From: Methanobacteriaceae archaeon 41_258
Lineage (GTDB): Archaea > Methanobacteriota > Methanobacteria > Methanobacteriales > DSM-23052
Reading direction: 5' to 3'
Length of the DNA: 21,766 bases
Assembly (NCBI GenBank): GCA_001507955.1
Contig: LGEU01000008.1
Coordinates: forward strand, 1 to 21,766
A program made the translations under genes and the position numbers. The notes beneath the pieces were generated by a model. It had not been told where the DNA came from. It saw only the letters and a list, made by a program, of their open reading frames with translations, and did no database searches. This document shows positions 1-18,891 of this stretch, in pieces. Numbering within the stretch: position 1 is the stretch's first letter; every line of letters starts with the position of its first letter.

Positions 1-201
1 ATTAACTCGTTCTCACTATATTACCCTTCGAGGATCACAGCAGATCACCTTTGAGTCGTGTGATTAATACCTTAATGATCCTCCATTATTATATGATTTT
101 TACAGAGTCAAATTTTAATCAAAAGATTTGAAAAGGTGGTTGACAATGCTTAGTCGAGTCTTCGAGCACCTTTGAAGCCTACTAATCTTGGGAGGGCTGG
201 C

Positions 202-1440: not shown

Positions 1441-1445
1441 ATCCC

Positions 1446-1451
1446 TTTTTT
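1446..1451 (+). terminator. oligo-T tract directly after the pyruvyl transferase stop (archaeal-type terminator candidate)
   Basis: TAA at 1438-1440 is followed by atccc-TTTTTT (1446-1451). Archaeal termination commonly uses oligo-T runs. Confidence 0.35.
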
Positions 1452-1715
1452 AGAACGTGTATAACAATTTCAATAATTAAGTCGTAAAGAGGTAGTATTT
1501 TTCACATAATAAATAGCTCTAAAGACAATGTTAAAGTATTAAATATCTTTAGGTATTAGAGTAATATTTTTTGCTTATGGGACATTCCCTGTATATCTTT
1601 CAGCACCAGGATCACTCTAAAATCGAAGTCAAAACACTCTATTGATTTTATCTCCAAGAGCCTTTTTGTGGTGAATTACTCAGTATAGTGTGTAAAACAT
1701 ATAATTGAATAGAAA

Positions 1716-2294
1716 ATGCCAAATGGTGATGGTGATCACCTTCAGGAGAGCATATTAGATCGAGTATCATAACATCGATGAATCTTTTATATGCCCTTTT
1801 ATTGGACAAGTTTCTTGTATTACTTTCAGAAAGTTTAGGTCCATAAAAACCCTATAGTTAAGAGATTATTGGATTATTTCCTTGAAAGGTCCGATCTAAT
1901 CCTTTTAAGGGATAAATCATATCTATTTTCAAGAAAATATTGAACTGAAGAATTAAAATTTATAATAGGCAACTGCAATCTTTTTATAGGTGCCAGGATG
2001 CATGCCACCATAGCTTCTACTTCAATGTTTGTCCCAACTGTCGGGATAGCATACAGTCATAAAATGCATGGAATAATCGGTGAAATGCTCGGCCTTGAAG
2101 ATTATATAATCGATCTGGAAGATCTAAACCATGAAATATTAATCGAAAAGGTGATGGAGGCATGGAAGAACAGGGAGAGAATAGTTGAACATCTTAAAAA
2201 GACAATCCCGAGAGTGAAAGAAAGAGCCTTAAAAAATGGCGAAGCTTTAAAAGAGGTGATTCACTTTCCTAGAAAATCCCTTTCTAGCTTTTAA
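1716..2294 (+). pseudogene. decayed paralog of the adjacent polysaccharide pyruvyl transferase
   Basis: Translated pieces align with the intact gene: GDGDHLQES vs TGGDVLSED; LLYALLLDKFLVLLSESLGP*KPYS*EIIGLFP vs SIAILLKKPVFVYAESIGPFKNNITRFIARTVL; LERSDLILLRDKSYLFSRKY* vs LNKTHVITTRDEISFNYLKKIG; EELKFIIGNCNLFIGARMHATIAS...ALKNGEALKEV vs EELKYIISHCELFIGARMHANIAA...ALKNGELVKEL. In-frame stops sit at 1844, 1859, 1883 and 1941. There is at least one frameshift, and roughly 110-120 codons are missing between the YLKKIG-like and EELK-like blocks. Confidence 0.75.
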
Positions 2295-2464
2295 GGATAC
2301 GATAATGTAGAGAAACACATATTATTAGTTACCAGGGGATTGGCTTCTGTTTTTTCCTCGAGCTAAATGAGGAAGTCATTCAGAAAAGTAATTAACTTTC
2401 AGATTTTCCCCACAAGTATCCTACCAACATGTGAGAATTTTCAGCATCCTTATTGATAGTAAGA

Positions 2465-3228
2465 TTAGGCTCTGTTTTTGACTTTGAAGCCTGATTTTTC
2501 AAGTTTTTCTTTGAGATTCTTGTAACCATAATGATAGTCCATTATTATCTCCTGGAAAGCTTTCAGAGTCTTTTTTGGCGTTTTAAGTATGCTGTATTCG
2601 CAGCCTTCACAATCCATTTTCAGACAAGCGTTTTTTAAATTGAATCTTTCCACTATTTCTTTTAAAGTCGTTAATTTTATGGGTTTGCCCTCTGCAGAGG
2701 ATTTCAAATCGGAACTAGGTGGGTTCTCATATTTTTCATTTAATTTTGTTTCACCTAGTTTTTTGGCAAGAGCTTCATTAAATGGTACGATCTTCCCTTC
2801 TAAACCATTGCCTTTGATGACTTTTAATAATAATTTATATGATGAGGGATATGGTTCGAAAGCATATACTTTTTTGGCTCCCTTTAAAATGAAATAGACA
2901 GAGGAATCTCCTACGTATGCTCCTATATCTACCACAACTTTTCCACTTACGTCCATTCTACTATATATGTCATCTACAAATGTTTCCTTTAATGTACCAA
3001 CAATAGTAAGACATTTCTTCCTTGAATCAGCATAGAACTTAAGATTTCTACCTTTATAATAAAATTTTATTAAACTATTTTTCTATTTTCACTATTCCCC
3101 CTTCAAATTCCCCCGTGAAACCATTTAATAAACCAATCTTAAATAATAAGGCCCCAAGCCAATTCTTATAATTTTTTCTAAGTTGTGTGAAATTTTCTAT
3201 GTAATTCTTGATACGATTTGAAAACATG
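2465..3228 (-). pseudogene. FkbM-family SAM-dependent methyltransferase, N-terminal third disrupted by two frameshifts (intact 163-aa ORF 2465..2956)
   Basis: ORF 2465..2956 has VVVDIGAYVGDSSVYF...KKVYAFEP (SAM-binding) and LKMDCEGCEYSIL, the FkbM/Methyltransf_21 pattern. Upstream, the same reading continues in two other frames: MFSNRIKNYIENFTQL* from ATG 3228, then NFRKNYKNWLGALLFKIGLLNGFTGEFEGGIVKIEK*, then KNSLIKFYYKGRNLKFYADSRKKCLTIVGTLKETFVDDIYSR-MDVSG. Frame breaks coincide with homopolymers at 3172-3177 and 3078-3082. Confidence 0.7.
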
Positions 3229-3507
3229 ATGTAATTTATCTGCCTTCTATTAATAAAATTTATTGAAAAGGGTCTGTCAAGAAGTTGAGGGTTTGATGTT
3301 CAAAAAGCTTTATCTGATTTAATGTTCGGGGTTTATGTGTGGATTTTACACCCTTTATTTGTTTTATGCTCTGGGGAAAACTTTTCCGGGTGTTCTCCTA
3401 GTGGGTTTGGCTCAATATTCTCATCAAATCAGGCTAGGAATGTCTTAGAGTATGGAAGGATCCTAACGTTATTGCCCCACTATAACCTTCGAATAGCTTT
3501 TTATGTC

Positions 3508-4363
3508 TTATAGTATCTTGTTTAGTTTGGCTTCTGGCTCCTTTGTAGGTTTTTGAATTGAATATCGAATTAATTCGAATTTTTCTCTTCTTATATTGTC
3601 TATCTGGTCTCTAGGCAAGTTTTTTTGACATGGTTTTCTGTGAAGCCTTTTAATGCGTGGAAGAGGCACCATTGGTGTTTGAAGCCCAGATGATTCTATT
3701 ATTGGCTCATCAGGGCCCGTTGTTATGGCTATCTTTTTAATAGGGTGTTTCTTTCCAGGGAAAGTCCCTTCTTACAGTGATTTTCTTCGGGGTATAATTT
3801 CGTCGGCCACGATAATATCCCTTCTAACATACATTTGTCTTTGATCTTGGATCTCCTATCAAAGATGTAATATTCAGAATAAGACTCCCCAAAATCCTAT
3901 CCAGACCTTTTAGGGATTCTCAGTCTTCGAAATGGTCTGTCTGGATTTTAATACCCCTTATAGGTGATTCTACGAAACCAAAAAATGGAGCCGCTAATTC
4001 AAAGGGCACTTCTCACCTGAACCCATAAGTAAACTGTTATCCTCCCATGATATATCAGCTTTTAAATCTTTTATCGCATCTGGTGCATCTATATGCTTGG
4101 GATCTCAGCGTCCACAACCCCCATAGGATAAGTTTCCTTCCGCATATAACCATCTCTAATCACATTTTTTATTTGAAGCCGCGGATTCATCCTGTATACG
4201 CAAAACATCCAATTTAGACCATTCTTTTGGCGTCCTAGATGATTTGACAAGCTTTTTGAATGATTAGCCCGACTTTCAATGTACTCTGAAAAAGACAAGG
4301 ATAGGAAAGCTTATAAGTCCGATCCAGCAAAACAACATTTGGAACAAGTGTTTTCTTTGTCAT
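3508..4363 (-). pseudogene. stop- and frameshift-riddled gene relic, weak sulfotransferase-like motifs
   Basis: ATG at 4363 is preceded by GGTGGAG about 12 nt upstream. The N-terminus reads MTKKTLVPNVVLL, like the start of a PAPS-binding strand. An internal (Y*)NPDRPFRRL resembles the RNPxDRxxS motif. The C-terminal frame RDQIDNIRREKFELIRYSIQKP... ends at TAA 3508-3510. No frame stays open for more than about 70 codons. The family assignment is tentative. Confidence 0.3.
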
Positions 4364-4927
4364 GTTAAACACTCTGCTCCACCCCACATAGACTTTAAGG
4401 TTCCATTCTTTCAGTAGTACTTTTTATAGGTGTGAGAACAGGTCATGGTGGATAAATTAAAAACCCACAAGTTTTTGACAGTGCCAAAGGTTAATGAAAA
4501 AACAAAATTTAGTTCTATATTTAAATCTTACGTTAGAAAATTAGTATTATCAATTGTTGGTGTGTGGTGACAATGACTTTGACACCCGTTGACGCAATCA
4601 TTTAAACCCATCTCAAAAAAGCGAATCATAGCTTGTAGTATGTGACTTTTTTTGTTCTTTTTTGCTACTTCAACCTCAGCCCAAGGTGTAAAACAAAAAA
4701 TTGAGTCTTTATGTTGCTTTTTGTTTTTGTGTCATTTGAGATTTAACTTATAAAATTTTTTTCACCACCAAGATTTTACTTTTTATTTCACTTTTACCTC
4801 CATATGCCCTAAAAGCGCTTGGCCGAAGTTTCACAGCAAAAAATTTTATTTACCTATATTATGAACCAAACAACCTGATTTACTCGCTAAAAGTAAACAC
4901 TTGAAAGTCCCCATAAATAGATCTGCC

Positions 4928-6181
4928 TTACTTGTCCAAATTTTGGAAAAACTTGAAAATTGGCCATAAATACTTTTTCGTTGAAAGCTCAGTTTTAATA
5001 TAACGAACCAGACTCCATACGTACATTCCAGTCGAAATTCTCTTTTCTTTGGAACTTGAAACTCCATAAGAAGGCACTTTATTTCCAAATAATTTTAAAA
5101 TGCCTGTATTAGGCTTTAAAAAATCTCTTTTGAACTTCTCCATCTCCTGTAATCTCTTGAGTCCATTTTTGCCTTCCACGCGTAGCATTTTCATTTCACT
5201 TCCATTTAATCTTTTTATCATTCTATCAGCAAATTCACTTCTCGTTATTATTAACGAATGATTTTTTAGATTATACTGTAAATAAGGAAACCAACCGCTA
5301 CCAATAGATATATCTGCTAATTCACATGTTTGATCGCGACATGCCATACACCTTTTGCTGCTACAAAAAATCAAATGATTAAAAACTAAATTCCAAAATT
5401 TAACATGGCTAACCTTTTTTGTACTTCCATTCATGCACTTGATTATCATATAACCAGGTGGAAAGTCTCCGGTTCGATATACCATTTCCTTAACTTCTTC
5501 TTCTGCTATTCCAAGTTTATATAATAAGTACTGGGTTGCCAAAAAAGTTATTCCATAAGAACAAAATAAGCCAATATGCAAAACAATTTTTTCTTTAAGT
5601 TCCTTTTTGAGCCTTTCGGCCTTTCTAAGACCATGAATATGGCATGGTAAACCGACCACTGCAAATTTTTTAAAATTAGAATTCAAAATTTCATTTAAAG
5701 CGACATTAGCTGGGACTGGGCAATACTTAGATCCTATAGCATCAATTAACTCATCTTTAGTCGTCGCTATAAACGCTTCGGGCTTTAAAGGATCATTTTT
5801 ACTCATTCTAGTAACCAAGGCACCGTCAATTATCTTTCCATCTAACAAACTGAGCAATAACTGAAGTACAACTCCCCCAGAAGATGATTCAGATCTCAAC
5901 TTTTCATTTAACGAGTGGCCAACATAAATATTTTTATAAGTTCCCAAAATGATGTCCTTTGGTTTTTCTTGAAATACAAATTCATTAAGTTCTTCAAAAT
6001 TAACTGCTATTCCCGGGCAAACTTTAATACAGATCATGCATTCATTGCATTCCCCTTTGATAATTGGCACATAAGTTCCCTTTTTTTGGTCGATCTCCAT
6101 TTTTATAATATTTTGAGGGCATAGGCCTGCGCAGGTCCCGCAACCAGTGCACAGATCCTTCACTTCAGTGATGTTTTTCAT
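4928..6181 (-). CDS. coenzyme F420 hydrogenase/dehydrogenase beta subunit (FrhB/FdhB)-like protein with N-terminal 2x[4Fe-4S] ferredoxin domain
   Basis: 417-aa ORF. It has two Cys clusters, CTGCGTCAGLCP and CNECMICIKVCP, followed by SSSGGVV...GLPCHIHGL, typical of the FrhB_FdhB N/C domains. Its start overlaps the flippase stop (ATGA at 6178-6181). Confidence 0.8.
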   Translation of the reverse strand: MKNITEVKDLCTGCGTCAGLCPQNIIKMEIDQKKGTYVPIIKGECNECMICIKVCPGIAVNFEELNEFVFQEKPKDIILGTYKNIYVGHSLNEKLRSESSSGGVVLQLLLSLLDGKIIDGALVTRMSKNDPLKPEAFIATTKDELIDAIGSKYCPVPANVALNEILNSNFKKFAVVGLPCHIHGLRKAERLKKELKEKIVLHIGLFCSYGITFLATQYLLYKLGIAEEEVKEMVYRTGDFPPGYMIIKCMNGSTKKVSHVKFWNLVFNHLIFCSSKRCMACRDQTCELADISIGSGWFPYLQYNLKNHSLIITRSEFADRMIKRLNGSEMKMLRVEGKNGLKRLQEMEKFKRDFLKPNTGILKLFGNKVPSYGVSSSKEKRISTGMYVWSLVRYIKTELSTKKYLWPIFKFFQNLDK

Positions 6182-7626
6182 GCTTCTTTCCCCAACAAGT
6201 TATTCAATAATAGCCTGTCATCATCTCCAAAGGTTTTCAACAGGAAGAGGAATAAGAAATAAATGATTGTGGCAAGACCAATAATGATAAATGTGTTCAG
6301 GTTTTTTATTGGATATATTGTTATGGCCATTATGATTGATGCTATTAAGGGTTTTGTGAATGTTCGATTCACATTTATGGTCTTATAATAGCGTCCTATA
6401 TAAAATAGGAATAGACAGTATAGTAGGAGTTCTGATAGTACTGTGGCTATGCTTGCGCCTATGTAGCTGTAATATGGTATTAGTATAAGGTTTAGGATGA
6501 TGTTGAAGGCTGCGCTTATTCCTACGCTGAACATTCTGTAGCCTTGTCTGTTTATGGAGCTTAAGAGTGTTCCTGTGATAGTGCTGACGAGCCGAATGGG
6601 TATGAAGAGTGCCAAGATTTGGAATGCTATTATGGCGCCGGTATATCCTCCAGCATAAAGTATTAGTATGAATTTGTCTGCGAGTATGAAACATCCAATG
6701 GCAATGGGAAGGCCAAAGATTGCAAGATACTTAGATGAAACAATTGTAAGTTTTCCTAGGGATTCTTTATTTTCTTTATAGTATTTTGACATTACAGGGT
6801 AGATTGCGGCTGACACTATCCCCGCGACAATCATACTCAGACTTAGAAGGGGATTATAGGCTGCATTGTAGATTCCAACGGCGACATCACCTTTTAAAAA
6901 ACCTAGGAGTATAGTGTCTATTTTGAAGAAAAACACTGCAAATAGTGCGTTCAAACCAAATGGTAATCCCATCATTAAAAGTTTTTTCTGCAGTTTCCAA
7001 TCAATCTTAAAGAGGGGTTTTATTAACTTTTTGAAGGTTATGGTTGCTGCGAGGATCATATCTATGATGCCTGCCAGGATATAAATGTATGCGACTGCTA
7101 TCACACCGTAGCCCATGAATAGGACCGTTAAAGTAAAAGTTGCGATTATTACACGTTCTATGATCTGGAATAGTGCGACATATTCCATTTTCTCCCAAGC
7201 CTGGAAGAGTGAAAGGTAAGTGCTTGAGAGTGTGAATAAGATATTGTAAATTCCGAAAAGATAGAGTAGAATGGATAATGTCTTAGGGAATCTAAGAGTC
7301 CATGTTATCAGAATGATACCTATGAATGTTAAAATTGAAAGCAGAATCTTTAATAGGATGGCATTGTTCACATAATATTCTGATAATTGTTTTTTTCTAG
7401 CTATCTCTCTTATGAGTAATTGGCTAATGCCGAGGTCGGCGAATATCGCGAAAAGGTTTGTAAATGAAAATGCAAAATTATATTTTCCAAAATCGGCTTC
7501 TCCAAGGAACCTTGCAAGGTATATGAAAAGCACGAAGGATATTAGCGCGGTTAATACTTGCGCTGCTCCCATCACTCCCATATTCTTTACTATTCTCTGA
7601 ATTTGATTCATTATAATCACTGACAA
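6178..7626 (-). CDS. oligosaccharide/polysaccharide flippase (MOP superfamily, Wzx-like)
   Basis: 482-aa ORF that is hydrophobic throughout, with many predicted TM helices. The N-terminus KNMGVMGAAQVLTALISFVLFIYLARFLGEADFGKYNFAFSF matches the polysaccharide biosynthesis protein pattern. The track start at 7626 is TTG; the first ATG is at 7611. Confidence 0.85.
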   Translation of the reverse strand: MSVIIMNQIQRIVKNMGVMGAAQVLTALISFVLFIYLARFLGEADFGKYNFAFSFTNLFAIFADLGISQLLIREIARKKQLSEYYVNNAILLKILLSILTFIGIILITWTLRFPKTLSILLYLFGIYNILFTLSSTYLSLFQAWEKMEYVALFQIIERVIIATFTLTVLFMGYGVIAVAYIYILAGIIDMILAATITFKKLIKPLFKIDWKLQKKLLMMGLPFGLNALFAVFFFKIDTILLGFLKGDVAVGIYNAAYNPLLSLSMIVAGIVSAAIYPVMSKYYKENKESLGKLTIVSSKYLAIFGLPIAIGCFILADKFILILYAGGYTGAIIAFQILALFIPIRLVSTITGTLLSSINRQGYRMFSVGISAAFNIILNLILIPYYSYIGASIATVLSELLLYCLFLFYIGRYYKTINVNRTFTKPLIASIIMAITIYPIKNLNTFIIIGLATIIYFLFLFLLKTFGDDDRLLLNNLLGKEA

Positions 7627-7851: not shown

Positions 7852-8754
7852 TTAAATTTTTGAGGTGTCCTTGTATGCTGTGGTTGCTGCGATGGCACCC
7901 TCAGCGCATGCTGTAACCCACTGATTTAACCCGCCTGTTATGTCCCCAGCGGCATAAACTCTTTCTATATTGGTTCTTTGTTGCTTGTCAGTTATTATGT
8001 AACCTGCCTTGTCTGTTTTGACTCCTAGGTCTTGGGCGAGTTTGTTTAGTGGTTCTTCTCCTATTGCTATGAATATACCATCAGTTTTTATCGTGATGGT
8101 TTGGCCCTTTTTGTTTTCTATTATGGCCCCCTGAACTGCATTGTTGCCTTTGATTTCTTTTAGGGTGCTGTTCCATATTATGGGGATTTTTAGTTTTTTT
8201 GTCTGGTCTTGTAGGTATTTTTGGGCCCTTAATTGATCCCTTCTGTGTATTATTGTGGGTTTGGATCCTATTTTGTGTAGGAATATTGCTTCTTGTAGTG
8301 CGCTGTTCCCTCCTCCGACAACTAGGACTTTTTTGTCTTTGTATAGTGGTCCGTCGCATGTTGCACAGTATGATACTCCTCTTCCTAGGAATTTTTCTTC
8401 GCCGGGGATTCCCAGTCTTTTGTGTCGTGTTCCGGTGGCTAGGATTATTGTTTTGGTCTTGTAGGTGTCTTTTTTAGTCCCTACCTCGAATCCTTCACGT
8501 GTTTTTTCGATTTTTGTAACCTCTTCCAGTTCTTTGAGTTGCGCGTGCTCTGTTGCCTGCTTTTTTATCTTTTGTATGAGTTCTTGACCTTCTATTCTTT
8601 CGTATCCTGGGTAGTTTTCCATTAACGGCACTTCTAGTCCTTTTCCCCCGGCTATTCCCTTTTCGAGTATGAGTGTTTTGCTTCCTTGTCTTCCGGCATA
8701 TATGGCGGCTGTTAGGCCTGCTGGTCCAGCCCCTATTATTATTATGTCATACAT
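7852..8754 (-). CDS. trxB: thioredoxin-disulfide reductase (low-Mr type)
   Basis: 300 aa. It has the FAD motif [17 protein letters not shown], the redox-active CATC (SYCATCDG), a second dinucleotide motif [12 protein letters not shown] followed by HRRDQLRA, and C-terminal AAGDIT. Confidence 0.9.
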
Positions 8755-8780: not shown

Positions 8781-8803
8781 ATTCTTTGGTAATATTATTT
8801 ATT

Positions 8804-8878
8804 GCTCCGATAGTGTAGTCCGGCCAATCATCTCGGCCTCTCGAGCCGAGGACCCGGGTTCAAATCCCGGTCGGAGCA
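8804..8878 (+). tRNA. tRNA-Glu (anticodon CUC)
   Basis: 75-nt cloverleaf. The acceptor stem is GCTCCGA/TCGGAGC with discriminator A. The anticodon stem is TCGGC/GCCGA with loop CTCTCGA (anticodon CTC at 8841-8843). The T arm is CCGGG-TTCAAAT-CCCGG. The 5' GCTCCGATAGTGTAGTCCGGCCAATCAT is typical of archaeal tRNA-Glu. No CCA is encoded. Confidence 0.9.
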
Positions 8879-8887
8879 TTCTCTTCA

Positions 8888-9558
<671 letters not shown>

Positions 9559-9741
9559 TTATCAACTCCCATTCTCCATTTATCCATTCTTTTTCTGATT
9601 TTTTCATGGTTCTTCTCATCATTTAGTGGATGATTATTATATTACTTGCTTGTCCAATTTATAATATTTTTGATCTAAACCTTGGGCGAAGATTATTTCT
9701 ATAATGGATGATCTAATTTGATGTTGGAGGTGTTCTTGGGG
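9559..9741. promoter_or_regulatory. divergent intergenic control region (TATA-like TTTATAATAT 9658-9667; repeated TGGATGAT at 9627-9634 and 9705-9712)
   Basis: This AT-rich spacer separates the CARF-HTH gene from the ACT-MBL gene. The TATA-like box lies 75-84 nt upstream of ATG 9742. An 8-mer direct repeat occurs 78 nt apart, and the first copy is embedded in TCATC-N8-GATGA (9616-9633). Confidence 0.3.
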
Positions 9742-11289
9742 ATGGCCACGTTTGAGGTTTGGAAGTCCACTACCGATAATTTATTCCTTGGTAGAGTGAA
9801 GGTTTATGTGCCGGATAGGCCAGGATCCCTTGCGAGGATAGCTGGTTACTTTGCAGATCATGATATAAACATATCATATTTTTATTATAATAGATCTGAG
9901 CATCCTAATCGCGTTCTTGTTGAGGGAAAGTCCAAAGAGAACGTTTTCCACTCCCTATACAATGATCTTGTCCATGGAGGATCCTTTAAGGAGTTATTTG
10001 AGGAAAATCTTCAAATCACAAAACCTGACAATATTCTTAAAGTCTCTGTCTATCTTGAGAACAAACCCGGAACCCTCAAAGATTTTGCGAAGGTTCTTGA
10101 AAGGTATGGTGCCAATGTCACTTACATGATCTATAATGAGATGATATCAGAGAACAAGGCTGAAATGGCATTCTATGTCAAAGACCCAGAGCAGATCCAA
10201 GAACTCGCCAAGGAATTAAACACACTCGGATATCATTACAATCTTGAATACACCGGGGCCGACGAGGAAAAAACTAATATGATGATCGGTTTGAACCTTA
10301 TTGAAAGGTTTTTCCTCAAACTCAGAGAGCTCCTAGATGATGAGGAAGTAGCGAAGATAAAAAGACTCGTTAACACTTCCAAGGAGTTATCCAATACCCT
10401 CATTGGTTTTAACCGGGAAGCTGGTCGGAACCTTGAAGCCGGCCAAGTCCTTGGGAACATATTGGCCTTCGCAATATCATCTAGGACGCGTAAAGATGAT
10501 GCATTCTACTATAGAAAGCTGCCCAGCCTACCACTCGGCAACCTACTATTACATGTTTTCAAACCCCCAACAGGCGGCAACATCCACATCCTAGAATATG
10601 ATAAAGACCTTGTAATGATCGACGGCACCTATGGCATATACTACAACAACATAAAAGAAATGCTAAGAGAGAATGGCCTAGACCCTTCAAGGATAAGTCG
10701 GATTTATCTTTCCCATGCTGACGCAGACCATGCCGGCCTCAGCGGATACTTCCATGAAGAATATGGTACAAAAGTTTTCATGCACCCACAAGCCAAGAAG
10801 ATCATAGAGGAAGAGAATCGTGCAGCAGGCTCAAAAACACCCCTCATGGAACTTAACCATTATTTCACAATCCTTGTAAACCATTTTACAGAGTGCAAGT
10901 TCCCCAAGAACTGGCAACCATACAAGACAAAGAAAAGGGGCGAAATCGGAGCATTCCACATAATAGACCATTTCAAGGTTGGTGGCTTAAATTTCAAGGT
11001 TCTGGAAAGCCTTGGGGGTCACATACCAGGACAAGTATTTTTCTTATCAGAAGAAGCAAAGGTACTATTCAGTGGCGATTATCTGCTCTATGTGCCAAGC
11101 TTGGAGGATGAGGAGAAAAAATTCCTAAACATTCCAAGATTCCTCATGACAAGTACCAATGCAAACTCAATGCTATTCAAAGAAGAAATGCAAGCATTGA
11201 AAGAAGTTGCAAAAGCGACTGATAAAAAGGTGAATGGTTTGATCGTGTTACCAGGCCATGGAGATTACTACCCCATAAGACTCCTATAA
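9742..11289 (+). CDS. tandem ACT domain + metallo-beta-lactamase-fold hydrolase
   Basis: The ORF is open from 9718 (TTG). ATG 9742 sits 9 nt after GGAGGTG (9726-9732). There are two ACT-like units (VKVYVPDRPGSLARIAGYFADHDINISY; VSVYLENKPGTLKDFAKVLERYGANVTY). MBL motifs follow: LVMIDGTYG, SHADADHAG, VFMHPQ, GGHIPGQ, FSGDYLL, LPGHGD. Confidence 0.8.
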   Translation: MATFEVWKSTTDNLFLGRVKVYVPDRPGSLARIAGYFADHDINISYFYYNRSEHPNRVLVEGKSKENVFHSLYNDLVHGGSFKELFEENLQITKPDNILKVSVYLENKPGTLKDFAKVLERYGANVTYMIYNEMISENKAEMAFYVKDPEQIQELAKELNTLGYHYNLEYTGADEEKTNMMIGLNLIERFFLKLRELLDDEEVAKIKRLVNTSKELSNTLIGFNREAGRNLEAGQVLGNILAFAISSRTRKDDAFYYRKLPSLPLGNLLLHVFKPPTGGNIHILEYDKDLVMIDGTYGIYYNNIKEMLRENGLDPSRISRIYLSHADADHAGLSGYFHEEYGTKVFMHPQAKKIIEEENRAAGSKTPLMELNHYFTILVNHFTECKFPKNWQPYKTKKRGEIGAFHIIDHFKVGGLNFKVLESLGGHIPGQVFFLSEEAKVLFSGDYLLYVPSLEDEEKKFLNIPRFLMTSTNANSMLFKEEMQALKEVAKATDKKVNGLIVLPGHGDYYPIRLL

Positions 11290-11909: not shown

Positions 11910-12581
11910 ATGAAAACAGAATATAAGAACATCTCCAAGAAGATGAAAGACAAACTAGGACTTGAAAGGTCTCCCGTGGCTGTTAAACTCGTACTCCACG
12001 AGGAGGACATGCCAGGGGATGTTGAAAGGATAAGCGAGCCGGCTAGGCACTGCGAAATGGTGATGCGGGCAAGTGAAGGCGAAATGTTCTACGCACTCGC
12101 AGAGGACCAGGAATGCAAAGGGGGAGCAGGTGCCATCGGAGCCGCTGAAACACCAGAAACTGTAAAGACCGGAGAATTCTATTATGGCCTGGGCAGATTT
12201 TCAAGTCTCCCAGCCGCCAAAAGAACACTAGACCAGATCCCAAAGATAAACCTTAAATTCTATGCTGTAGTATACGCACCACTAGAAAAAGTAGAATTCG
12301 ACCCTAATGTTATATTAGTGGTCTGTAACCCTGCCCAAGCACTCAAGATAATCCAGGCACTAGTCTACACCAAAGGTGGCAGGGTCAAGGGAGATTTCGC
12401 AGGCATACAATCAATCTGTGCAGATGCAGTGGCAGGACCATACACGCGAGGCGAAGCCAACATAACCCTAGCATGCAGCGGCTCAAGACAATACTCCAAC
12501 ATAAGAGATGATGAGCTTGTAATTGGCCTAACAGCCGAAAATATAGACTGTACAGTAGAAGCGCTCGAAGAAATGGCATAA
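11910..12581 (+). CDS. DUF169 domain-containing protein
   Basis: 223 aa, with AAGGTGA (11896-11902) 7 nt before the ATG. The N-terminal LGLERSPVAVKL, then HCEMV...ECKGGAG...PNVILVVCNPAQALKIIQAL...QSICADAV...ITLACSGSR, match the DUF169 pattern as I recall it. Confidence 0.7.
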   Translation: MKTEYKNISKKMKDKLGLERSPVAVKLVLHEEDMPGDVERISEPARHCEMVMRASEGEMFYALAEDQECKGGAGAIGAAETPETVKTGEFYYGLGRFSSLPAAKRTLDQIPKINLKFYAVVYAPLEKVEFDPNVILVVCNPAQALKIIQALVYTKGGRVKGDFAGIQSICADAVAGPYTRGEANITLACSGSRQYSNIRDDELVIGLTAENIDCTVEALEEMA

Positions 12582-12582
12582 C

Positions 12583-12804
12583 ATGGGGAGTGGATCAGCC
12601 TTGGTTGAAATAACCGACATATTAGATGAAGCACGTGACCTTGCAGAGAAGATAAAAAAGTACCGCGAAGAGGCTGAGAGTGAGACCATAGCATGTTGGA
12701 TCTATGATGTCATACTCTCAATGGAAGATCTGGCTAAAATCGTTGAAGAATTACAAGATAGGATAGACTTGCTCGAAGAGGAACTAGAAGGTAAAAAATT
12801 CTAG
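12583..12804 (+). CDS. small acidic coiled-coil protein, unknown function
   Basis: 73 aa. The ATG is 1 nt after the DUF169 stop. The sequence is E/D/L/K-rich with heptad character (LAKIVEELQDRIDLLEEELEGKKF). I recognise no homology. Confidence 0.45.
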   Translation: MGSGSALVEITDILDEARDLAEKIKKYREEAESETIACWIYDVILSMEDLAKIVEELQDRIDLLEEELEGKKF

Positions 12805-13433
12805 TTCCTCCTAATAATTTTTAGATAATCATCAAAGGTATTCAGGTTAATAAGTTCTATTCCATCTGACGGCCTTATAGCATACAAGATTATACCATCC
12901 CCTAGTATGTGCCAGAGCAATGGATTAACGTTACCACTATACAATGGTAAATATTTTAGTAGGAGTTTCCTGGGGGCTGCGAATGGCATCCCAAGACCCC
13001 TAGCATTGTCCAAGCAACCGAAAGAACCCCTCCCAAGTATCGACACTCTATCATCCCCCACGGCCCTGATAATCTTCTTGTAGGTCCTAGGAGTGACTGT
13101 TGGCTGGTCTCCGGCAACACAAAGACAAAAAAGTCCCCTAGCATTCTTCACACCATTCAATAACGAGCCAGTTAATGGCAGATCATCCTGGTTCTCCACG
13201 ATCCTAACATCCAAGTCACTGATCACAGGGATTATATCATCCTTCTGGTGTCCAACAACAACGATACACTCATCCACACCAGCACTCAGAACATTAACTA
13301 TGGTCTTTTCTATCACTGTTCCACCATTTAACTTTAGTAGGAGTTTATGCCTTGGCTTCAACCCCCTTTTTTTCATGTCAGCTTTCATCCTTTTCCCTTT
13401 ACCTGCTGCTGTTATAATCCCTGATACTTTCAT
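12801..13433 (-). CDS. MobA/MocA-like nucleotidyltransferase (NTP_transf_3-type)
   Basis: 210 aa. The N-terminal GIITAAGKGKRM is the nucleotide-binding loop, followed by K-LLKLNGGTVIEKTI, then ECIVVVGH, then CVAGDQP (the DQP motif of MobA-like enzymes). Confidence 0.7.
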   Translation of the reverse strand: MKVSGIITAAGKGKRMKADMKKRGLKPRHKLLLKLNGGTVIEKTIVNVLSAGVDECIVVVGHQKDDIIPVISDLDVRIVENQDDLPLTGSLLNGVKNARGLFCLCVAGDQPTVTPRTYKKIIRAVGDDRVSILGRGSFGCLDNARGLGMPFAAPRKLLLKYLPLYSGNVNPLLWHILGDGIILYAIRPSDGIELINLNTFDDYLKIIRRN

Positions 13434-13528: not shown

Positions 13529-14704
13529 CTACGTTGGTACTAATCTGAGGACTTTAGCATGTATCAGCATGCTCGGACCTGAACCTTCAGTCCACATGAT
13601 TATCATTATAGGATACCGCCCATCATTATACACTTTAACATCTGTAACCGGGTCGAAACCATACATGAGCGCGAAATATCCCCAGCTTATACCTGTGGGC
13701 GTGGGCAGCCCTGCCTCTGCAATAGCATCTCTGAGAGCTCTTGCCGGTGGACACGTACCATGTGAAGCATAACCTCCAGGAGCCTTGGGGTCCCTTGATG
13801 ATGTGAACTGGACTGTTTCCTTTCCAGGTGAACTCGTCCCAGGAGGCACTATGGTACCATTCCAAGCCTTTGTGAATTGTCTTGCATTATATTCCCTGTT
13901 TATATTACCATACTCTGGGTATGATTCAAGTTGGCTTGTGGCTGTTGCAACTTCCTCTACCTTGTAGTGGTGCATGTAGGCCATGATAGGGGCGCCCTCA
14001 GGATATTCCCGCATGTATTTTTTCGTTTTTTCACCAAAGAATCTGCTTATGTCCTCTGGTGGCACTTCTAGTCTGCCATCATTAAAATTGGAAAGTGAAA
14101 AGTCTATAGCTATCCGGTCACCTATCTTCGCTTCCTTGTACCATTCTTTAAGTTCTGTTTCATTAATATAATCAGAGGCCACACTATCTATCTCGTTGGG
14201 TGATAATGTCCTTATTGTTTTATTCTTCTCCACTATGCTTATACCATCCTCTGTTTTAACGGCATAGGTGTATGGTGTCTTATATGCCCATATGAAATTT
14301 GCTGGTGGCTGTACAACTAGCTTATCACCTTTCGTTGTTAGCATCCCAGGACCCTCTAATTTGGAGGCTTTTCCACTAGCATCAACACCCTCTGTAACTT
14401 CCTTTATTGGTGTCATCATGGTCCCTGTGAATAGGCCATAGATGACCGCACCTATATCTCCACTTTGCATGTTCTTGACTAGATAATCTGGGTGTATGAT
14501 TAGGGGTTCTTTCCTTATCTTTGCAGGGTCCGCCACTTGCATCCCAGACACTACTGTGCTCCCTATGGGTATGCTGCTTATCTTTTCAGGATTCTGTTGT
14601 GGTATCATGGTGTGGATGTGGTAATCTAGTGGGGTCATCACAGTCACTATCAATACTAGTATAACTATCATAATCCTAGGATCCTTTGAGGATGTTTTTA
14701 GCAT
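13529..14704 (-). CDS. membrane-anchored (N-in, bulk outside) protein of unknown function with a distantly VanW-like C-terminal region
   Basis: 391-aa ORF. An alternative ATG at 14671 lies 4 nt after the upstream stop. KDPR is followed by the hydrophobic IMIVILVLIVTVMTPL. The C-terminal NGTIVPPGTSS...GGYASHGTCPPARALRDAIAEAGLP...YGFDPVTDVKVYNDGRYPIMIIMW loosely recalls the VanW-domain pattern. Coding status is solid; function is unknown. Confidence 0.7.
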   Translation of the reverse strand: MLKTSSKDPRIMIVILVLIVTVMTPLDYHIHTMIPQQNPEKISSIPIGSTVVSGMQVADPAKIRKEPLIIHPDYLVKNMQSGDIGAVIYGLFTGTMMTPIKEVTEGVDASGKASKLEGPGMLTTKGDKLVVQPPANFIWAYKTPYTYAVKTEDGISIVEKNKTIRTLSPNEIDSVASDYINETELKEWYKEAKIGDRIAIDFSLSNFNDGRLEVPPEDISRFFGEKTKKYMREYPEGAPIMAYMHHYKVEEVATATSQLESYPEYGNINREYNARQFTKAWNGTIVPPGTSSPGKETVQFTSSRDPKAPGGYASHGTCPPARALRDAIAEAGLPTPTGISWGYFALMYGFDPVTDVKVYNDGRYPIMIIMWTEGSGPSMLIHAKVLRLVPT

Positions 14705-16145
14705 ATTTATAGCCTCCTTCCCCTATTATTAGGATGGTGTCATTTTTTTCTGCATGTTTTAGGGCTTTTTGGATGGCCTCATCCACCTGCTTCTTGCTGG
14801 CTCCTAATGTGCCTTGTTTCATTTTTTGTTTGCTAGACTTTATATGTATGATCTTGGCTCTTGTATGATCTGATGCCTTTCTCGCACTATATGATGCTGG
14901 TATTATGATGTTGGCGCTTGAGAGTATTCTTGCTATCTCTTTGTCGCCTTCTATTCCACTCTCAGAGGATATGGTATTCACTACTATGATTTTTCCAGGG
15001 GTTTCTTCTTTTACAAGTTGCATTATGGCCCTGACACCAGCTGGGTTATGGGCATAGTCTATGATTATCTTGGGCTCTCTTTTTATTATCTCATGCCTTC
15101 CAGCAGCGCCTTTAAATGAGCTTATACCCTCTATGATATGCTCGGGGTTGATGCCGAGGGTTAGGCTTGCGGCGGCCGCCGCAAGACTATTATAGACATT
15201 GAAAAGTCCGCCTGTTTTGAGTTTTATTGCCTTATCTGCTATGTTTAATCTGAACTTATCCATTTCTACTTTGGTGGCTTTAACGTCCAACTTTGGCCTT
15301 CTGTAACCGCATGTACAATAGTAGTCTCCAAGGTGGCCTAGGAACCTATTCTTGTATTTTAGGGGTTTGCCACAATAGGGGCATTCTCTGTCTTCTGGGA
15401 ATACCTCAAAGTGGGATTTGATTGATTCTATACCATAGAATGTTACTTTGTCCTTGGGGAGGCTTTTGGCGAAACTTGCTACTATAGGGTCATCAGCATT
15501 TAATATGATGTGCTGGGCGACGTCTATGATCTCTTTTTTACATTCTATGTATTTTGGGAAATCCTCTGGTGGTAGATGATCTCTTGAAATGTTTGTTATA
15601 ATAGCTATCTTGACTTTGCTGTCTGTAGCAGCCTTTTTTATTTCACCTGGTCTTCCAAATGTTCCTATTTCAACTACTGCTATGTCACCTTCTAGTCTTG
15701 CTTGTAAAGCTGGTATGAATTCTGTGTTTCCTTGGATGTTAAGATAATGTTCAGGGACCTTGTATCCTGCCACTCTTAGTATGTTTTTTAAAATCTGTGT
15801 GGTGGTGGTTTTGCCATTGGTTCCTGTGACGCCTACAACTGGCTTTTTAACTTTGCAGGATGCTATGATGTCCTCGACTGTTATGATCTCTTTGCCTTTT
15901 ATGAGTTGGAGTATCTTCTCATTTTCTAGTAGGCTTGGTGCCACCGCTATCTTATCAGCTCCTCTTATTATATTGGGGCTGTGACCTCCAAGGTCTAGTT
16001 TGATGCCCTCTGCTTGAAAGATTTCCCATAGGGGTGTTTTTTTGCGAATGTCTGATATTGTTACAGCAGCCCTCTTTGCTAGTATTCTGGCCATTAGGCT
16101 TCCTACTGTCCCGCACCCGCCAAGTACCACTATCCTCTCCATCAT
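14676..16145 (-). CDS. Mur ligase family protein (pseudomurein peptide ligase candidate) with MurT-like Cys4 ribbon insert
   Basis: 489 aa. It has an N-terminal VVLGGCGTVGSLMA Rossmann segment, the P-loop GVTGTNGKTTTT, ITNISRDHL, and a ribbon CPYCGKPLKYKNRFLGHLGDYYCTCGYRRP (nt 15309-15383). The C-terminal domain has YAHNPAG. ATGA overlaps the upstream gene. Confidence 0.85.
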   Translation of the reverse strand: MMERIVVLGGCGTVGSLMARILAKRAAVTISDIRKKTPLWEIFQAEGIKLDLGGHSPNIIRGADKIAVAPSLLENEKILQLIKGKEIITVEDIIASCKVKKPVVGVTGTNGKTTTTQILKNILRVAGYKVPEHYLNIQGNTEFIPALQARLEGDIAVVEIGTFGRPGEIKKAATDSKVKIAIITNISRDHLPPEDFPKYIECKKEIIDVAQHIILNADDPIVASFAKSLPKDKVTFYGIESIKSHFEVFPEDRECPYCGKPLKYKNRFLGHLGDYYCTCGYRRPKLDVKATKVEMDKFRLNIADKAIKLKTGGLFNVYNSLAAAAASLTLGINPEHIIEGISSFKGAAGRHEIIKREPKIIIDYAHNPAGVRAIMQLVKEETPGKIIVVNTISSESGIEGDKEIARILSSANIIIPASYSARKASDHTRAKIIHIKSSKQKMKQGTLGASKKQVDEAIQKALKHAEKNDTILIIGEGGYKYAKNILKGS

Positions 16146-17683
16146 CTGTTCCCCTTGTAATCTTCTATAGCCCTCCGAATGTCCATTTTAACATTTTGGT
16201 AGGCGTTAACAACCCCAGGACCCATGTGGATTATTATATTTCCTTTTTCAGAGTTTTTCAAGGCTTCTTTAATGGATTTGTAGACGTTTTCTACTATTAT
16301 GGTTTTTGTGGGGTTCGCCCCCTCTGCAACCTCTTCAGCCGCCTTCCAATCTATTTGCCCTGTTGTTTCATTTTTGGCACTTACAATGAGCAGATCAGCC
16401 GCTTTTGCAAGCGTCTTACCTATCTTGAATTTATCCCGCACTGTTAATGTGTCAGGATTGTCAAGGCTTATTATAAGCCCACTATCGAATTCCAAACCCT
16501 CAAATAATTTCTCCATGCTCTCTGGGTTGTGAGCAGCGTCCATATAAACTTTAACACCATCAACCACGCCCATGACCTCAAAACGCCCCCTTATACCCTT
16601 AAATTCGCCTATGCGCTCCTTCAGATAATCTATGTCAAAACCTAGTATCAATCCTGTTGTAATGGCAGCCAGTGCATTTTCAACATTGAATATTCCTGGA
16701 ACCTGTAAATTGATCCTCTCCTCATATGGTCCAACATATTCCCGCTTGAAATCCCCACATTCACAGTTTATACTCCCACATCTTTCACATAAGACTGTGG
16801 GTATTCTCCCACTTAAAAATGTGAATTCTGAACCCCTAAGACCCTTTAGTTTGATTTCTTCGGCTTTAACATCAACTGATAGGGGCCTTGTCACATATTT
16901 TCTACCATGGAATTCAACCAGTCTTTTCCTGCCCAAGCCATAAATGATGCGTGCGTCTATTTCATCTATGAATCCGCCTATTATGGGATCATCTCCATTG
17001 AGTATGAGCAAGCCCCTCTCATTGATAAGATCCTTAATGAGAAGGTTACGCCTGATATAATCATCATAATCCTTGAATTCGTCGAGGTGGTCTGGGGTGA
17101 GCGTGGTTATGATACCAGCGCATAATTCAAGGCCTTGTGTCATTCTTATGGTACCATGTGGCAGTTCAAAAACTGCGAATTCACCCTCCAGTTTATCCTC
17201 CACCAGCAAATCAACCAGGCCTTCAATGACAAGTGAATCTTCTAATGATGAAAATGATATCGTGGCATGCTTCCCCTTTAGGATATGTTTTATCATGTTT
17301 GTAGTTGTGGTTTTACCATCTGTGCCAGCCACTCCAACCATTGGAATCTTAATAAGGGAGTTAAGCATGCTGCCAATCATTGAAGGCGTTATATATTCAA
17401 TATCCTTTTTCTCTATTAGTTTGTATATCACCGAGTCTTTTGGGATGTTAGGTGAGATGAAAATGGCATCTGCCCATTCTATATCCTGAGGATGATGCCC
17501 CCCAAAATGGAACCTTATACCACTTTCCTGCATCTTTTTTATCCTTTTTTTAGCCTTTAGGGGTAGTTTTTCGAATTCTTTGATTTCTGTGACTAGCACT
17601 TCATTGCCAAGGTGGTGTAGTAGTTTTGCAGCGGGTCTGCCAGCATTCCCCGCACCAACCACTAGTATTTTCTTATTCCTCAT
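16142..17683 (-). CDS. Mur ligase family protein (pseudomurein peptide ligase candidate) with compact Cys4 cluster
   Basis: 513 aa. It has LVVGAGNAGRPAA, the P-loop GVAGTDGKTTTT, TTLTPDHLDEF, CERCGSINCECG (nt 16757-16789) and AAHNPES. It is a paralog of the 489-aa gene (FNVENALAAI vs FNVYNSLAAA; EFKGIRGRFEV vs SFKGAAGRHEI). There are ATGA overlaps at both ends. Confidence 0.85.
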   Translation of the reverse strand: MRNKKILVVGAGNAGRPAAKLLHHLGNEVLVTEIKEFEKLPLKAKKRIKKMQESGIRFHFGGHHPQDIEWADAIFISPNIPKDSVIYKLIEKKDIEYITPSMIGSMLNSLIKIPMVGVAGTDGKTTTTNMIKHILKGKHATISFSSLEDSLVIEGLVDLLVEDKLEGEFAVFELPHGTIRMTQGLELCAGIITTLTPDHLDEFKDYDDYIRRNLLIKDLINERGLLILNGDDPIIGGFIDEIDARIIYGLGRKRLVEFHGRKYVTRPLSVDVKAEEIKLKGLRGSEFTFLSGRIPTVLCERCGSINCECGDFKREYVGPYEERINLQVPGIFNVENALAAITTGLILGFDIDYLKERIGEFKGIRGRFEVMGVVDGVKVYMDAAHNPESMEKLFEGLEFDSGLIISLDNPDTLTVRDKFKIGKTLAKAADLLIVSAKNETTGQIDWKAAEEVAEGANPTKTIIVENVYKSIKEALKNSEKGNIIIHMGPGVVNAYQNVKMDIRRAIEDYKGNR

Positions 17684-18891
17684 TGTCCCACCATTTTTTC
17701 TATATTTTCTTGGATCTTTATGATCCTTTCTTGCCCATTACCCCCTATAAGTATTCTATGATATTCACTGCTAAACTCTTCGAGTAATTTGATGATTTCT
17801 TCCACGCCTTTTGCAGTTAAAACCTTTGAGGGTAGATTCTCTGCACACTTTAGGGCGATATCTGTTGTGTCCTCGAGGCCCGGGAATAATACAAGTATTC
17901 TTGGCGGTTTTTTACCTATTTCTTGTAGTGTTTCGAATCTCCAGTCCTCGTTTCTTCTTGGGGTTCCGAGGAATATTATGTCAAAATCAGTTTCCTTTAG
18001 TATGGTTTTCATGGCTGAGGGATTATCAATCTTCCCTATGACTATCTCCGCGTTATTTAATTTATATGTTTGTATACGCCCCCTTGGGGCTTCAAAATCT
18101 TCCAAGACGGAGTCTATTATATTTTTAGGCGTGCCGAGTATTTGGGCTGCTTTCGCGGCGGCGCCGGCATTTAACTTGTTAAATTTCCCGAAAAGGTTGA
18201 GTTTACCATCATATGGCCCATATAGTATTGACTTGGGGGTTTTTAATTGTAGTGATAGTAGGTCTTCTTTGTTTAGCAGGACGTTTTTGCCTTTTAGGAA
18301 TCTTTTGAGACTTTTCTTATAATTTTTGATGGTTTTGTGATGGTTCATGTGGTCTCGGCCTATGTTGGTTAAGATCACAAGATTTGGATTGAAACATTGG
18401 TCCGCGAAATCTAGTGTCATGTCACATATCTCAACGACTATGATGTCATATTTGTCCTCTGCGGCTTGTAGTATGAGTTCTGTGTAGCCTTGGAATCCTC
18501 CTCCTGCGTTGCCACCTACTAAGACTTTTTTACCCCACTTTTTTAGTATTTTTGTGAGCATGAGGGCTGTTGTTGTCTTGCCGTTGGTTCCGGTGATCCC
18601 TATGGTGTATGGTTTTTTGTGCTCTTGGAGGATGTTGCAGATTATTTTATCTTCTACTTTTTCTTTGAGTGGTGTGTTATAAAGGCTTGGGCTTAATATT
18701 ATAATGTCACATGCCTTTATCTTATCCATATCATGGAAGCCCAAATCTACTTCAACATCATCTAGACCCTCTAAATTTAGATTAGTGTTGATGTCAGTGG
18801 CGTATACCTTATATCCACGTTTTCTAAGTGATTTAACGGCTTTTCTGCCTTCAACGCCCAATCCTATCACTGCAGCTTTCATTGCGGACAC
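17680..18891 (-). CDS. MurD-like Mur ligase family protein (pseudomurein peptide ligase candidate)
   Basis: 403 aa. The track start 18891 is GTG; ATG at 18882 gives MKAAVIGLGVEGRKAV. It has the P-loop GITGTNGKTTT, VGGNAGGGF (cf. MurD GGNIG) and LTNIGRDHMNHH. There is no Cys ribbon. Confidence 0.85.
   Translation of the reverse strand: MSAMKAAVIGLGVEGRKAVKSLRKRGYKVYATDINTNLNLEGLDDVEVDLGFHDMDKIKACDIIILSPSLYNTPLKEKVEDKIICNILQEHKKPYTIGITGTNGKTTTALMLTKILKKWGKKVLVGGNAGGGFQGYTELILQAAEDKYDIIVVEICDMTLDFADQCFNPNLVILTNIGRDHMNHHKTIKNYKKSLKRFLKGKNVLLNKEDLLSLQLKTPKSILYGPYDGKLNLFGKFNKLNAGAAAKAAQILGTPKNIIDSVLEDFEAPRGRIQTYKLNNAEIVIGKIDNPSAMKTILKETDFDIIFLGTPRRNEDWRFETLQEIGKKPPRILVLFPGLEDTTDIALKCAENLPSKVLTAKGVEEIIKLLEEFSSEYHRILIGGNGQERIIKIQENIEKMVGQ

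Follow-up and report, generated by a model that had tools for sequence, protein, structure and literature searches.

A probable VanW-type domain in PmurA, a predicted membrane-anchored protein encoded in the pseudomurein ligase operon of Methanobacteriaceae archaeon 41_258

The cross-linking of pseudomurein on the outer side of the membrane has been a standing question since the pathway was outlined around 1990. Exported, lipid-carried stem peptides are cross-linked with loss of the terminal residue (PMC2812497), and pseudomurein methanogens have no penicillin-binding protein (PBP)-type or YkuD-type enzyme (PMC10117817). Genome studies found no transpeptidase and turned to transglutaminases, which are the published candidates for the step (PMC10117817, PMC2812497, PMC11915815). 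Here we examine PmurA, the one conserved gene of the pseudomurein (pMur) cluster without an earlier fold assignment, in a 21,766-nucleotide stretch of DNA from Methanobacteriaceae archaeon 41_258 (contig LGEU01000008.1, positions 1 to 21,766; the whole stretch is called the window below). We report that residues 267-377 of its product are very probably a VanW-type domain, divergent and remotely homologous to the catalytic domain of bacterial wall transpeptidases.

Work published in 2024 identified VanW as a cysteine L,D-transpeptidase (LDT) that works in two steps through a thioacyl intermediate (PMC11348318). The cysteine is required for transpeptidation in Ldt4 and Ldt5 of C. difficile, which are depicted with a transmembrane helix at the N-terminus and whose extracellular domains were assayed in soluble form (PMC11348318). 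An earlier annotation of this DNA (the original prediction), which proposed an exported wall enzyme and saw a loose VanW-like pattern in it, described VanW as a domain of unclear function. That description is outdated, VanW being a Cys-His-Asp L,D-transpeptidase catalytic domain, and the wall-enzyme idea is therefore strengthened (PMC11348318). PmurA shares with the VanW LDTs (PF04294; Ldt4/Ldt5; PMC11348318) profile homology over the whole domain, a cysteine that opens the central helix and conserved N, P, G, C and N residues. The order of parts is also alike, with an N-terminal membrane helix, an intervening domain and then a VanW-type domain on the (in PmurA, predicted) outer face, and both the VanW substrates and pseudomurein have peptide stems that shed a terminal residue on cross-linking. 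PmurA differs from VanW in scoring below the Pfam threshold, in having its own invariant HGxCPxxRxxR motif in place of the conserved VanW His and Asp, in an intervening domain that is not PG_binding_4, in its archaeal host and in its putative substrate, an all-L peptide with gamma and epsilon bonds.

Three other groups of wall enzymes invite comparison. The YkuD-type L,D-transpeptidases also use a Cys nucleophile and a thioacyl intermediate on stem peptides, as proposed here for PmurA, but their fold differs, and VanW and YkuD are unrelated (PMC11348318). Pfam YkuD had no match in this PmurA or in 61 aligned family members. The YkuD active-site motif, (S/T)HGC, resembles the SHGxC of PmurA, which we take as a lead only. 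In the bacterial dcw cluster the gene for FtsI/PBP3, a membrane-anchored extracytoplasmic transpeptidase, lies directly among the cytoplasmic Mur ligase genes. PmurA would resemble it as a wall-facing anchored protein encoded amid Mur ligases, but PBPs are serine enzymes of unrelated fold. In pseudomurein methanogens no PBP orthologue was detected (PMC10117817). Finally, the transglutaminase-like proteins of methanogens and the phage endoisopeptidases PeiW and PeiP are cysteine enzymes that act on pseudomurein peptides outside the cell. Transglutaminase genes are, unlike PmurA, unlinked to pMur clusters (PMC11915815), and no transglutaminase-family or transglutaminase core domain was matched among the 61 PmurA members at Pfam E up to 10.

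The gene itself is known. PmurA is an open reading frame on the minus strand with its ATG at 14704 and its stop at 13529, coding for 391 amino acids, and the extent given by the original prediction is borne out. The protein matches NCBIfam NF053640.1, "Mfer335 family protein PmurA", at E 7e-158 (525.5 bits against a cutoff of 400; residues 16-390 on profile 1-378), its closest relatives are from Methanothermobacter (80-93% identity), and a Pfam scan of the 391 residues found no family at E up to 0.1. To call it uncharacterised, as was done before, is thus only partly apt, since the family already had a name (NF053640), a published description from 2021 (PMC10117817) and an assay from 2026 (PMC12996149). 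It appears in the literature as Mfer335 (PMC10117817), OG0001147 (PMC11915815) and PMurA (PMC12996149). Subedi et al. (2021) found Mfer335-type reading frames to be invariably present in, and restricted to, pseudomurein methanogens, recognized an N-terminal membrane-insertion segment and speculated on a role in phosphoryl transfer (PMC10117817). The 2026 paper hypothesized that PMurA phosphorylates glutamate and detected no Glu-phosphate; this only published functional test of PmurA assumed a cytoplasmic kinase and gave no product (PMC12996149). Like the gene studied here, the NF053640 proteins of the literature are encoded beside PmurB and pMur ligases, in pseudomurein Gene Cluster 1, and are limited to archaea with pseudomurein. 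What differs is the interpretation: there the family counts as hypothetical or as a putative glutamate kinase of the cytoplasm. No paper in the literature searched ties Mfer335/PmurA to VanW or to transpeptidation; the VanW relationship of the C-terminal domain is a new result of this work, and the fold assignment and the mechanistic hypothesis both appear to be new and to contradict the published working model.

A probable VanW-type domain and a putative active site

The VanW-like C-terminal domain (residues 267-377; window 13574..13906, minus strand) was recognized by hhalign, a second profile comparison tool, sub-threshold Pfam matches and secondary structure. For the comparison we used a diverse profile of 21 VanW domains, 9 of them VanW-B and 12 plasmid-encoded VanW-family proteins from Bacillus, Bartonella, Arthrobacter, Persicobacter, Rubrobacter, Niallia, Rhodococcus and Deinococcus. 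All eight of the plasmid proteins that were scanned match PF04294 strongly (E 1e-31 to 1e-48), and in four of these PG_binding_4 precedes the VanW domain. Aligned with this profile in hhalign, PmurA 262-391 gave a score of 43.2 over 111 columns (Prob 90.8, E 1.2e-6). None of 400 column-shuffled profiles reached that score (mean 12.3, standard deviation 2.5, maximum 21.7), a reversed-profile control scored 9.2, and the PmurA middle domain, set against the VanW domain as a negative control, scored 12.9. A second comparison tool, applied to full-length alignments built independently, returned the same register, with PmurA 267-375 on VanW-B 68-197 (Prob 70.7, E 3.8e-5). On the bacterial plasmids of the profile, the VanW gene adjoins an M15 metallopeptidase gene in Bartonella (L082, 2016-2639) and class E sortase and lgt genes in Rubrobacter (L086, 1972-2601).

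Fainter traces of the same relationship are present in single family members. Pfam VanW (PF04294) was matched in 12 of the 61 aligned proteins at E up to 10, the best at E 0.012, while any other family was matched in at most 2 of 61. These weak matches are collinear, PmurA ~268-297 lying on profile positions 1-32 and ~357-380 on positions 100-123. The motif pairs given in the original prediction are the pairs that hhalign aligns: PPGTSS with PGExFS, GxCPPARALRDAIAEAGL with GGGxCQxSxxLxxAxxAGL, GFDP with GxDA, and VKVYN..P.I with LKFxN..P.I. Its suggestion of a relation to VanW is thus supported by the profile-profile comparison, in which the cysteines align, together with the weak Pfam matches and a matching order of secondary-structure elements.

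That order was read from two structure models. An AlphaFold2 model of PmurA built from the 61-sequence alignment (mean predicted local distance difference test score, pLDDT, 91.7; predicted template modelling score 0.83) has a membrane helix at 9-33, a mixed alpha/beta middle domain at ~40-262 and a C-terminal domain consisting of helix 267-281, strands 284-286 and 290-292, helix 318-330 and strands 357-360, 366-373 and 380-390. An AlphaFold model of VanW-B (pLDDT 80) has helix 65-82, strands 85-87 and 92-94, a hairpin at 110-123, helix 128-139 starting from the Cys, strand 144-150 and three strands within 175-205. Common to both is the order helix, strand, strand, helix starting at Cys, three strands. 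The VanW-B hairpin before the Cys helix (110-123) and the strand that carries its His (144-150) are missing or shortened in PmurA. Foldseek, run with the whole 391-residue model as one query against PDB and BFVD, found nothing at E<=0.001 (best 0.068, template modelling score ~0.1), a null result that is uninformative for VanW because the PDB has no VanW structure. A family-profile sequence search of PDB chains gave only a chance match to YajQ (E 0.48).

The middle ectodomain (residues 35-262; window 13919..14602, minus strand) is specific to the family, has no Pfam match, contains the invariant residues D209, R211 and F223, and proved dissimilar to the PG_binding_4 regions of VanW proteins from bacteria. 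It possibly serves in substrate or wall binding.

The putative active site is the motif H315-G-x-C318-P-x-x-R322-x-x-R325 (13730..13762, minus strand), found in 123 of 123 near-full-length members. Cys318, the predicted nucleophile, is encoded by a TGT codon at 13751..13753 (minus strand; codon checked). It is the sole Cys of this PmurA, aligns with the catalytic Cys of VanW and is invariant across the family, so that conservation of the HGTC cysteine, a point raised by the original prediction, is complete. In the models C318 is the first residue of helix 318-330, just as C128 is the first residue of VanW-B helix 128-139. Conserved positions of the two proteins coincide at N273/N74, P288/P89, G316/G126, C318/C128, G349/G166 and N360/N182. 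The motif is also invariant in the most divergent lineage of the family, from contigs of 62% G+C, which in addition keeps R270, W281, N282, P287, P336, G338 and W371 and, in the middle domain, D209, R211 and F223. D305 was considered as a family-wide triad Asp and rejected, as it is absent from the member P0128 and from the 62% G+C lineage.

Anchoring, operon and distribution

A signal-anchor helix lies at the N-terminus of PmurA (residues 9-25, PRIMIVILVLIVTVMTP; 14630..14680, minus strand; AlphaFold helix 9-33). It is the sole hydrophobic segment, no second 19-residue window exceeding 1.1 on the Kyte-Doolittle scale, and is kept in 85 full-length relatives. The helix is flanked in this protein by 3 K/R and 1 D/E on the N-terminal side and by 0 K/R and 2 D/E on the C-terminal side; means over the 85 relatives are 2.8 K/R against 0.5 D/E before the helix and 0.7 K/R against 1.9 D/E in the 15 residues after it. 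In 81 of these 85 proteins the charge bias is of the N-in/C-out (positive-inside) kind. The short basic N-terminus and single hydrophobic helix described in the original prediction are therefore present by hydropathy, by flank charges and in the relatives, and PmurA is predicted to be a type II membrane protein with about 360 residues outside the cell. Several Methanobrevibacter-type members have Asn/Ser/Thr-rich C-terminal tails, which would fit a surface protein. A WN(G/N)T motif was considered as an N-glycosylation sequon in support of export and was dropped, because N-G is also kept in bacterial VanW (LNG) and homology explains its conservation.

Around one-third of the database gene models for PmurA (372-residue forms such as P0033, P0036 and P0040, and others) begin at an internal Met just past the helix (MYPFGN...). 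These truncated models, without the signal anchor, may contribute to the published score of no transmembrane segment and no signal peptide for OG0001147.

PmurA is the fourth gene of a five-gene operon on the minus strand, in the order pMurD2-pMurD1-pMurC-PmurA-PmurB. The first gene encodes the ligase pMurD2 (17680..18891; NCBIfam NF053647, 573 bits against a cutoff of 550). It is followed by a pMurD1-like ligase (16142..17683; best match NF053646 pMurD1, 352 bits against 610) and by a pMurC-type pseudomurein peptide ligase (14676..16145; best match NF053645, 518 bits against 560), each with Pfam Mur_ligase_M and Mur_ligase_C. Downstream of PmurA is PmurB, a MobA-like nucleoside triphosphate (NTP) transferase of the Mfer334 family (12801..13433; NF053639, 260 bits with a cutoff of 260). 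The original prediction called PmurA welded to the ligase operon, and the phrase holds: pMurD2 and pMurD1 overlap by 4 nt, pMurD1 and pMurC by 4 nt, and the 3' end of pMurC and the start of PmurA by 29 nt. By direct reading, a GGAGG Shine-Dalgarno sequence (14713..14717, minus strand) lies 8 nt 5' of the PmurA ATG, within the 3' end of pMurC.

Two properties of the ligases deserve mention. The pMurD1-like and pMurC proteins score under their NCBIfam equivalog cutoffs, while pMurD2 and PmurA pass and PmurB is exactly at its cutoff; either this lineage has D1 and C ligases of uncommon divergence or the cutoffs are strict. In addition, pMurC residues 255-279 (15309-15383, minus strand) form a CxxC...CxC insert (CPYCGKPLKYKNRFLGHLGDYYCTC) resembling a zinc ribbon, and pMurD1 has a similar Cys-rich stretch (CERCGSINCECGD). 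Both stretches sit between the Mur_ligase_M and Mur_ligase_C domains.

The PmurA family is confined to Methanobacteriales and to the 62% G+C, Methanopyrus-looking lineage. Among 1.84 billion cluster representatives, a filter-free hidden Markov model (HMM) search matched only 67 proteins at E<=0.001, about a dozen of them full-length clusters, the rest fragments and one spurious (P0183, E 3e-4, an NHL-type repeat protein); no relative from beyond the family was among them. The named cluster members are all Methanobacteri*, bar one metagenome-assembled genome (MAG) labelled "Methanomicrobiales". With one genome taken per GTDB species, 149 loci had a PmurA relative, and taxonomy and neighbours were taken from the best 80. 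All of these best 80 are Methanobacteriales-type, two of them loosely labelled (a "Methanomicrobiales archaeon" MAG and an "archaeon"). The check proposed in the original prediction, whether the family keeps to pseudomurein-bearing archaea, accordingly came out in its favour. The "Methanomicrobiales archaeon" MAG (JBNGDB010000006.1, 6031-7140) carries pMurD2-PmurA-PmurB; the order is not known to make pseudomurein, and the label or the binning is probably wrong.

The operon arrangement is widely shared. Wherever related loci had room for a downstream neighbour, PmurB almost always followed directly on the same strand (75 of 77). A pMur ligase lies upstream of PmurA in nearly all loci, pMurC in 25 of 74 and pMurD2 in most others. 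The most divergent full-length orthologue, P0133, comes from the contigs of 62% G+C (L093/L094, 5001-6179; lineage assemblies GCA_054046225.1 and GCA_054003095.1), keeps the membrane helix and AAHGCCPPARALR, and probably represents Methanopyrales, from a Methanopyrus-like organism.

Proposed mechanism and its alternatives

From homology, residue conservation, predicted topology, distribution and operon context we infer thiol chemistry, the substrate and transpeptidation over hydrolysis. That PmurA works outside the cytoplasm as a thiol enzyme on pseudomurein stem peptides is about an even call. That it is the cross-linking transpeptidase of pseudomurein is the simplest reading but a more tentative one, made by analogy with VanW. 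We put forward, as a possibility somewhat short of an even chance, that PmurA is a membrane-anchored cysteine L,L-transpeptidase of VanW ancestry with the rearranged site HGxCPxxRxxR. In such an enzyme the short basic N-terminus would be cytoplasmic, one helix would cross the membrane and the ectodomain would face the pseudomurein layer. Cys318 would stand at a helix N-terminus with His315 alongside and with Arg322 and Arg325 one and two turns on. The Cys would attack the peptide bond preceding the terminal Ala of an exported stem peptide, releasing Ala and leaving a thioacyl-enzyme, and the amino group of a neighbouring stem peptide would resolve this intermediate to give the cross-link. Arg322 and Arg325 may hold the carboxylates of the carboxylate-rich substrate.

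A number of observations weigh against this proposal. In VanW-B the triad His is assigned to H151 from conservation; this invariant residue falls on a variable PmurA column (W34, G18, D3, L2), and D177 and D168, the conserved candidates for the triad Asp, fall on columns of G39/D19 and N31/S16/D10, respectively. Because the VanW His and Asp are not conserved, the active site of PmurA would have to use other residues, for example His315 and perhaps D209 of the middle domain. This PmurA has no Pfam VanW match even at E up to 10, and the best coordinate-checked member, P0071, reaches 14.8 bits (E 0.02) against a Pfam VanW gathering threshold of 27. An earlier, narrow profile of 35 close VanW-B-type proteins, all real database sequences gathered with a seed ~65% identical to real VanW, was marginal in hhalign (E 0.064 at full length; 0.0097 with domains only, where 5 of 200 shuffles did as well); the signal became clear only once the 12 diverse plasmid proteins had joined the profile. 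P0133 is not beside pMur genes, having a TP_methylase gene upstream and, downstream, a MoaA-type radical-SAM gene followed by that for AlaRS. The near-obligate pairing with the cytoplasmic PmurB would suit an early cytoplasmic step equally well. From the literature, LDT activity was seen in only 3 of 7 VanW proteins from outside C. difficile (PMC11348318), recombinant M. ruminantium PMurA degraded ATP to ADP and AMP (PMC12996149), and Lupo et al. (2025) treated OG0001147 as hypothetical and uncharacterised, recorded for it neither a signal peptide nor a transmembrane segment, and named transglutaminase the best cross-linking candidate (PMC11915815). The exported wall enzyme of the original prediction thus stands in part, favoured by the VanW relation, the distribution and the Cys, and disfavoured by the loss of the VanW His and Asp, the missing Pfam VanW match and the unlinked gene of the most divergent lineage.

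An unlikely alternative keeps the same fold and location and lets PmurA only hydrolyse, either as an L,L-carboxypeptidase that trims the terminal Ala or as an endopeptidase that opens the sacculus for insertion, the cross-link then being made by other enzymes such as transglutaminase-like proteins. In its favour, VanW LDTs act as carboxypeptidases too, and the trimming persists when their Cys is replaced by Ala (PMC11348318); a different reaction could go along with the missing VanW His and Asp, and the literature proposes transglutaminases for the Glu-Lys bond. Yet the Cys, which VanW specifically requires for transpeptidation (PMC11348318), is absolutely conserved, and the gene lies within the biosynthetic operon at nearly every Methanobacteriales locus examined. 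The operon place and the invariant Cys argue for a core synthetic role more than for remodelling, although the two roles are not mutually exclusive.

The changed catalytic residues could also be read as those of a non-catalytic wall protein, a scaffold, wall-binding anchor or regulator of export or assembly that retains a VanW-like fold without the triad. The absence of the VanW His and Asp and the large family-specific middle domain without known relatives are consistent with this, but pseudoenzymes usually lose the nucleophile, and in PmurA no feature is better conserved than the nucleophile position, which is joined in the 11 residues of the motif by a new invariant His and two Arg in 123 of 123 members. 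We therefore regard such a role as improbable. We think it just as improbable that the VanW likeness is due to chance or convergence and that the domain has some unrelated function. Every HMM-to-sequence search, with either VanW HMM, stayed under threshold, and the narrow-profile comparison was marginal, as such an explanation would have it; set against this, the score of 43.2 spans the full domain of 111 columns and is about twice the highest of the 400 shuffles, six conserved positions coincide, the nucleophile among them, and the alignment was reproduced from independently built full-length alignments with a congruent order of secondary structure. The weakest reading, in our view very improbable, is the hypothesis of the literature (PMC10117817, PMC12996149) that PmurA is an early, cytoplasm-facing glutamate kinase or ATPase whose Glu-gamma-phosphate PmurB then joins to UDP, for although the PmurA-PmurB pairing and the ATP breakdown by the recombinant protein would fit it, the Glu-phosphate product was not detected (PMC12996149), no NTPase or kinase domain of Pfam or NCBIfam occurs in this protein or the 61 members, only 5 of 123 members show a Walker A pattern, the signal anchor and positive-inside bias predict a domain outside, where there is no ATP, and the sole homology that could be detected links it to a wall enzyme that acts outside the cytoplasm.

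Surrounding genes and significance

The rest of the window adds genes of several kinds. Positions 1-7626 form a low-G+C block (31-38%, against 40-46% elsewhere in the window) of glycan-synthesis genes, which may be a horizontally acquired surface-glycan island. It contains genes for a polysaccharide pyruvyl transferase (172-1440), an FkbM methyltransferase (2465-2956), an FrhB-like F420/4Fe-4S protein (4928-6181) and a Wzx-type flippase with weak similarity to MurJ (6178-7626), the last 6 kb from the pMur operon. Within the block, 1.9 kb of 35% G+C (2957-4845) has no open reading frame of at least 80 codons, no open stretch of more than 87 codons in any frame and no Rfam match, and may consist of decayed genes or non-coding spacer. 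Tandem genes for tRNA-Glu(CTC) and tRNA-Gly(CCC) (8803-8961, plus strand) lie near the edge of the block, between a thioredoxin-reductase-like gene (7852-8754) and a gene for a 198-residue protein with an HFX_2341/CARF-like Rossmann domain and a winged-helix DNA-binding domain (8962-9558, minus strand); the window shows neither CRISPR nor cas genes. Further on are a 523-residue fusion of two ACT domains with a metallo-beta-lactamase-fold domain (9718-11289, plus strand) and, adjoining it, a DUF169 gene (11910-12581).

Methanobacteriales and Methanopyrales include the main methane producers of the rumen and the human gut. If PmurA is the cross-linking transpeptidase proposed here, rumen and gut methanogens would have in it a unique, surface-exposed and thiol-dependent drug target, attractive for selective inhibitors. 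The common ancestry of murein and pseudomurein would then reach past the cytoplasmic Mur ligases and MraY to the cross-linking of the wall outside the membrane.

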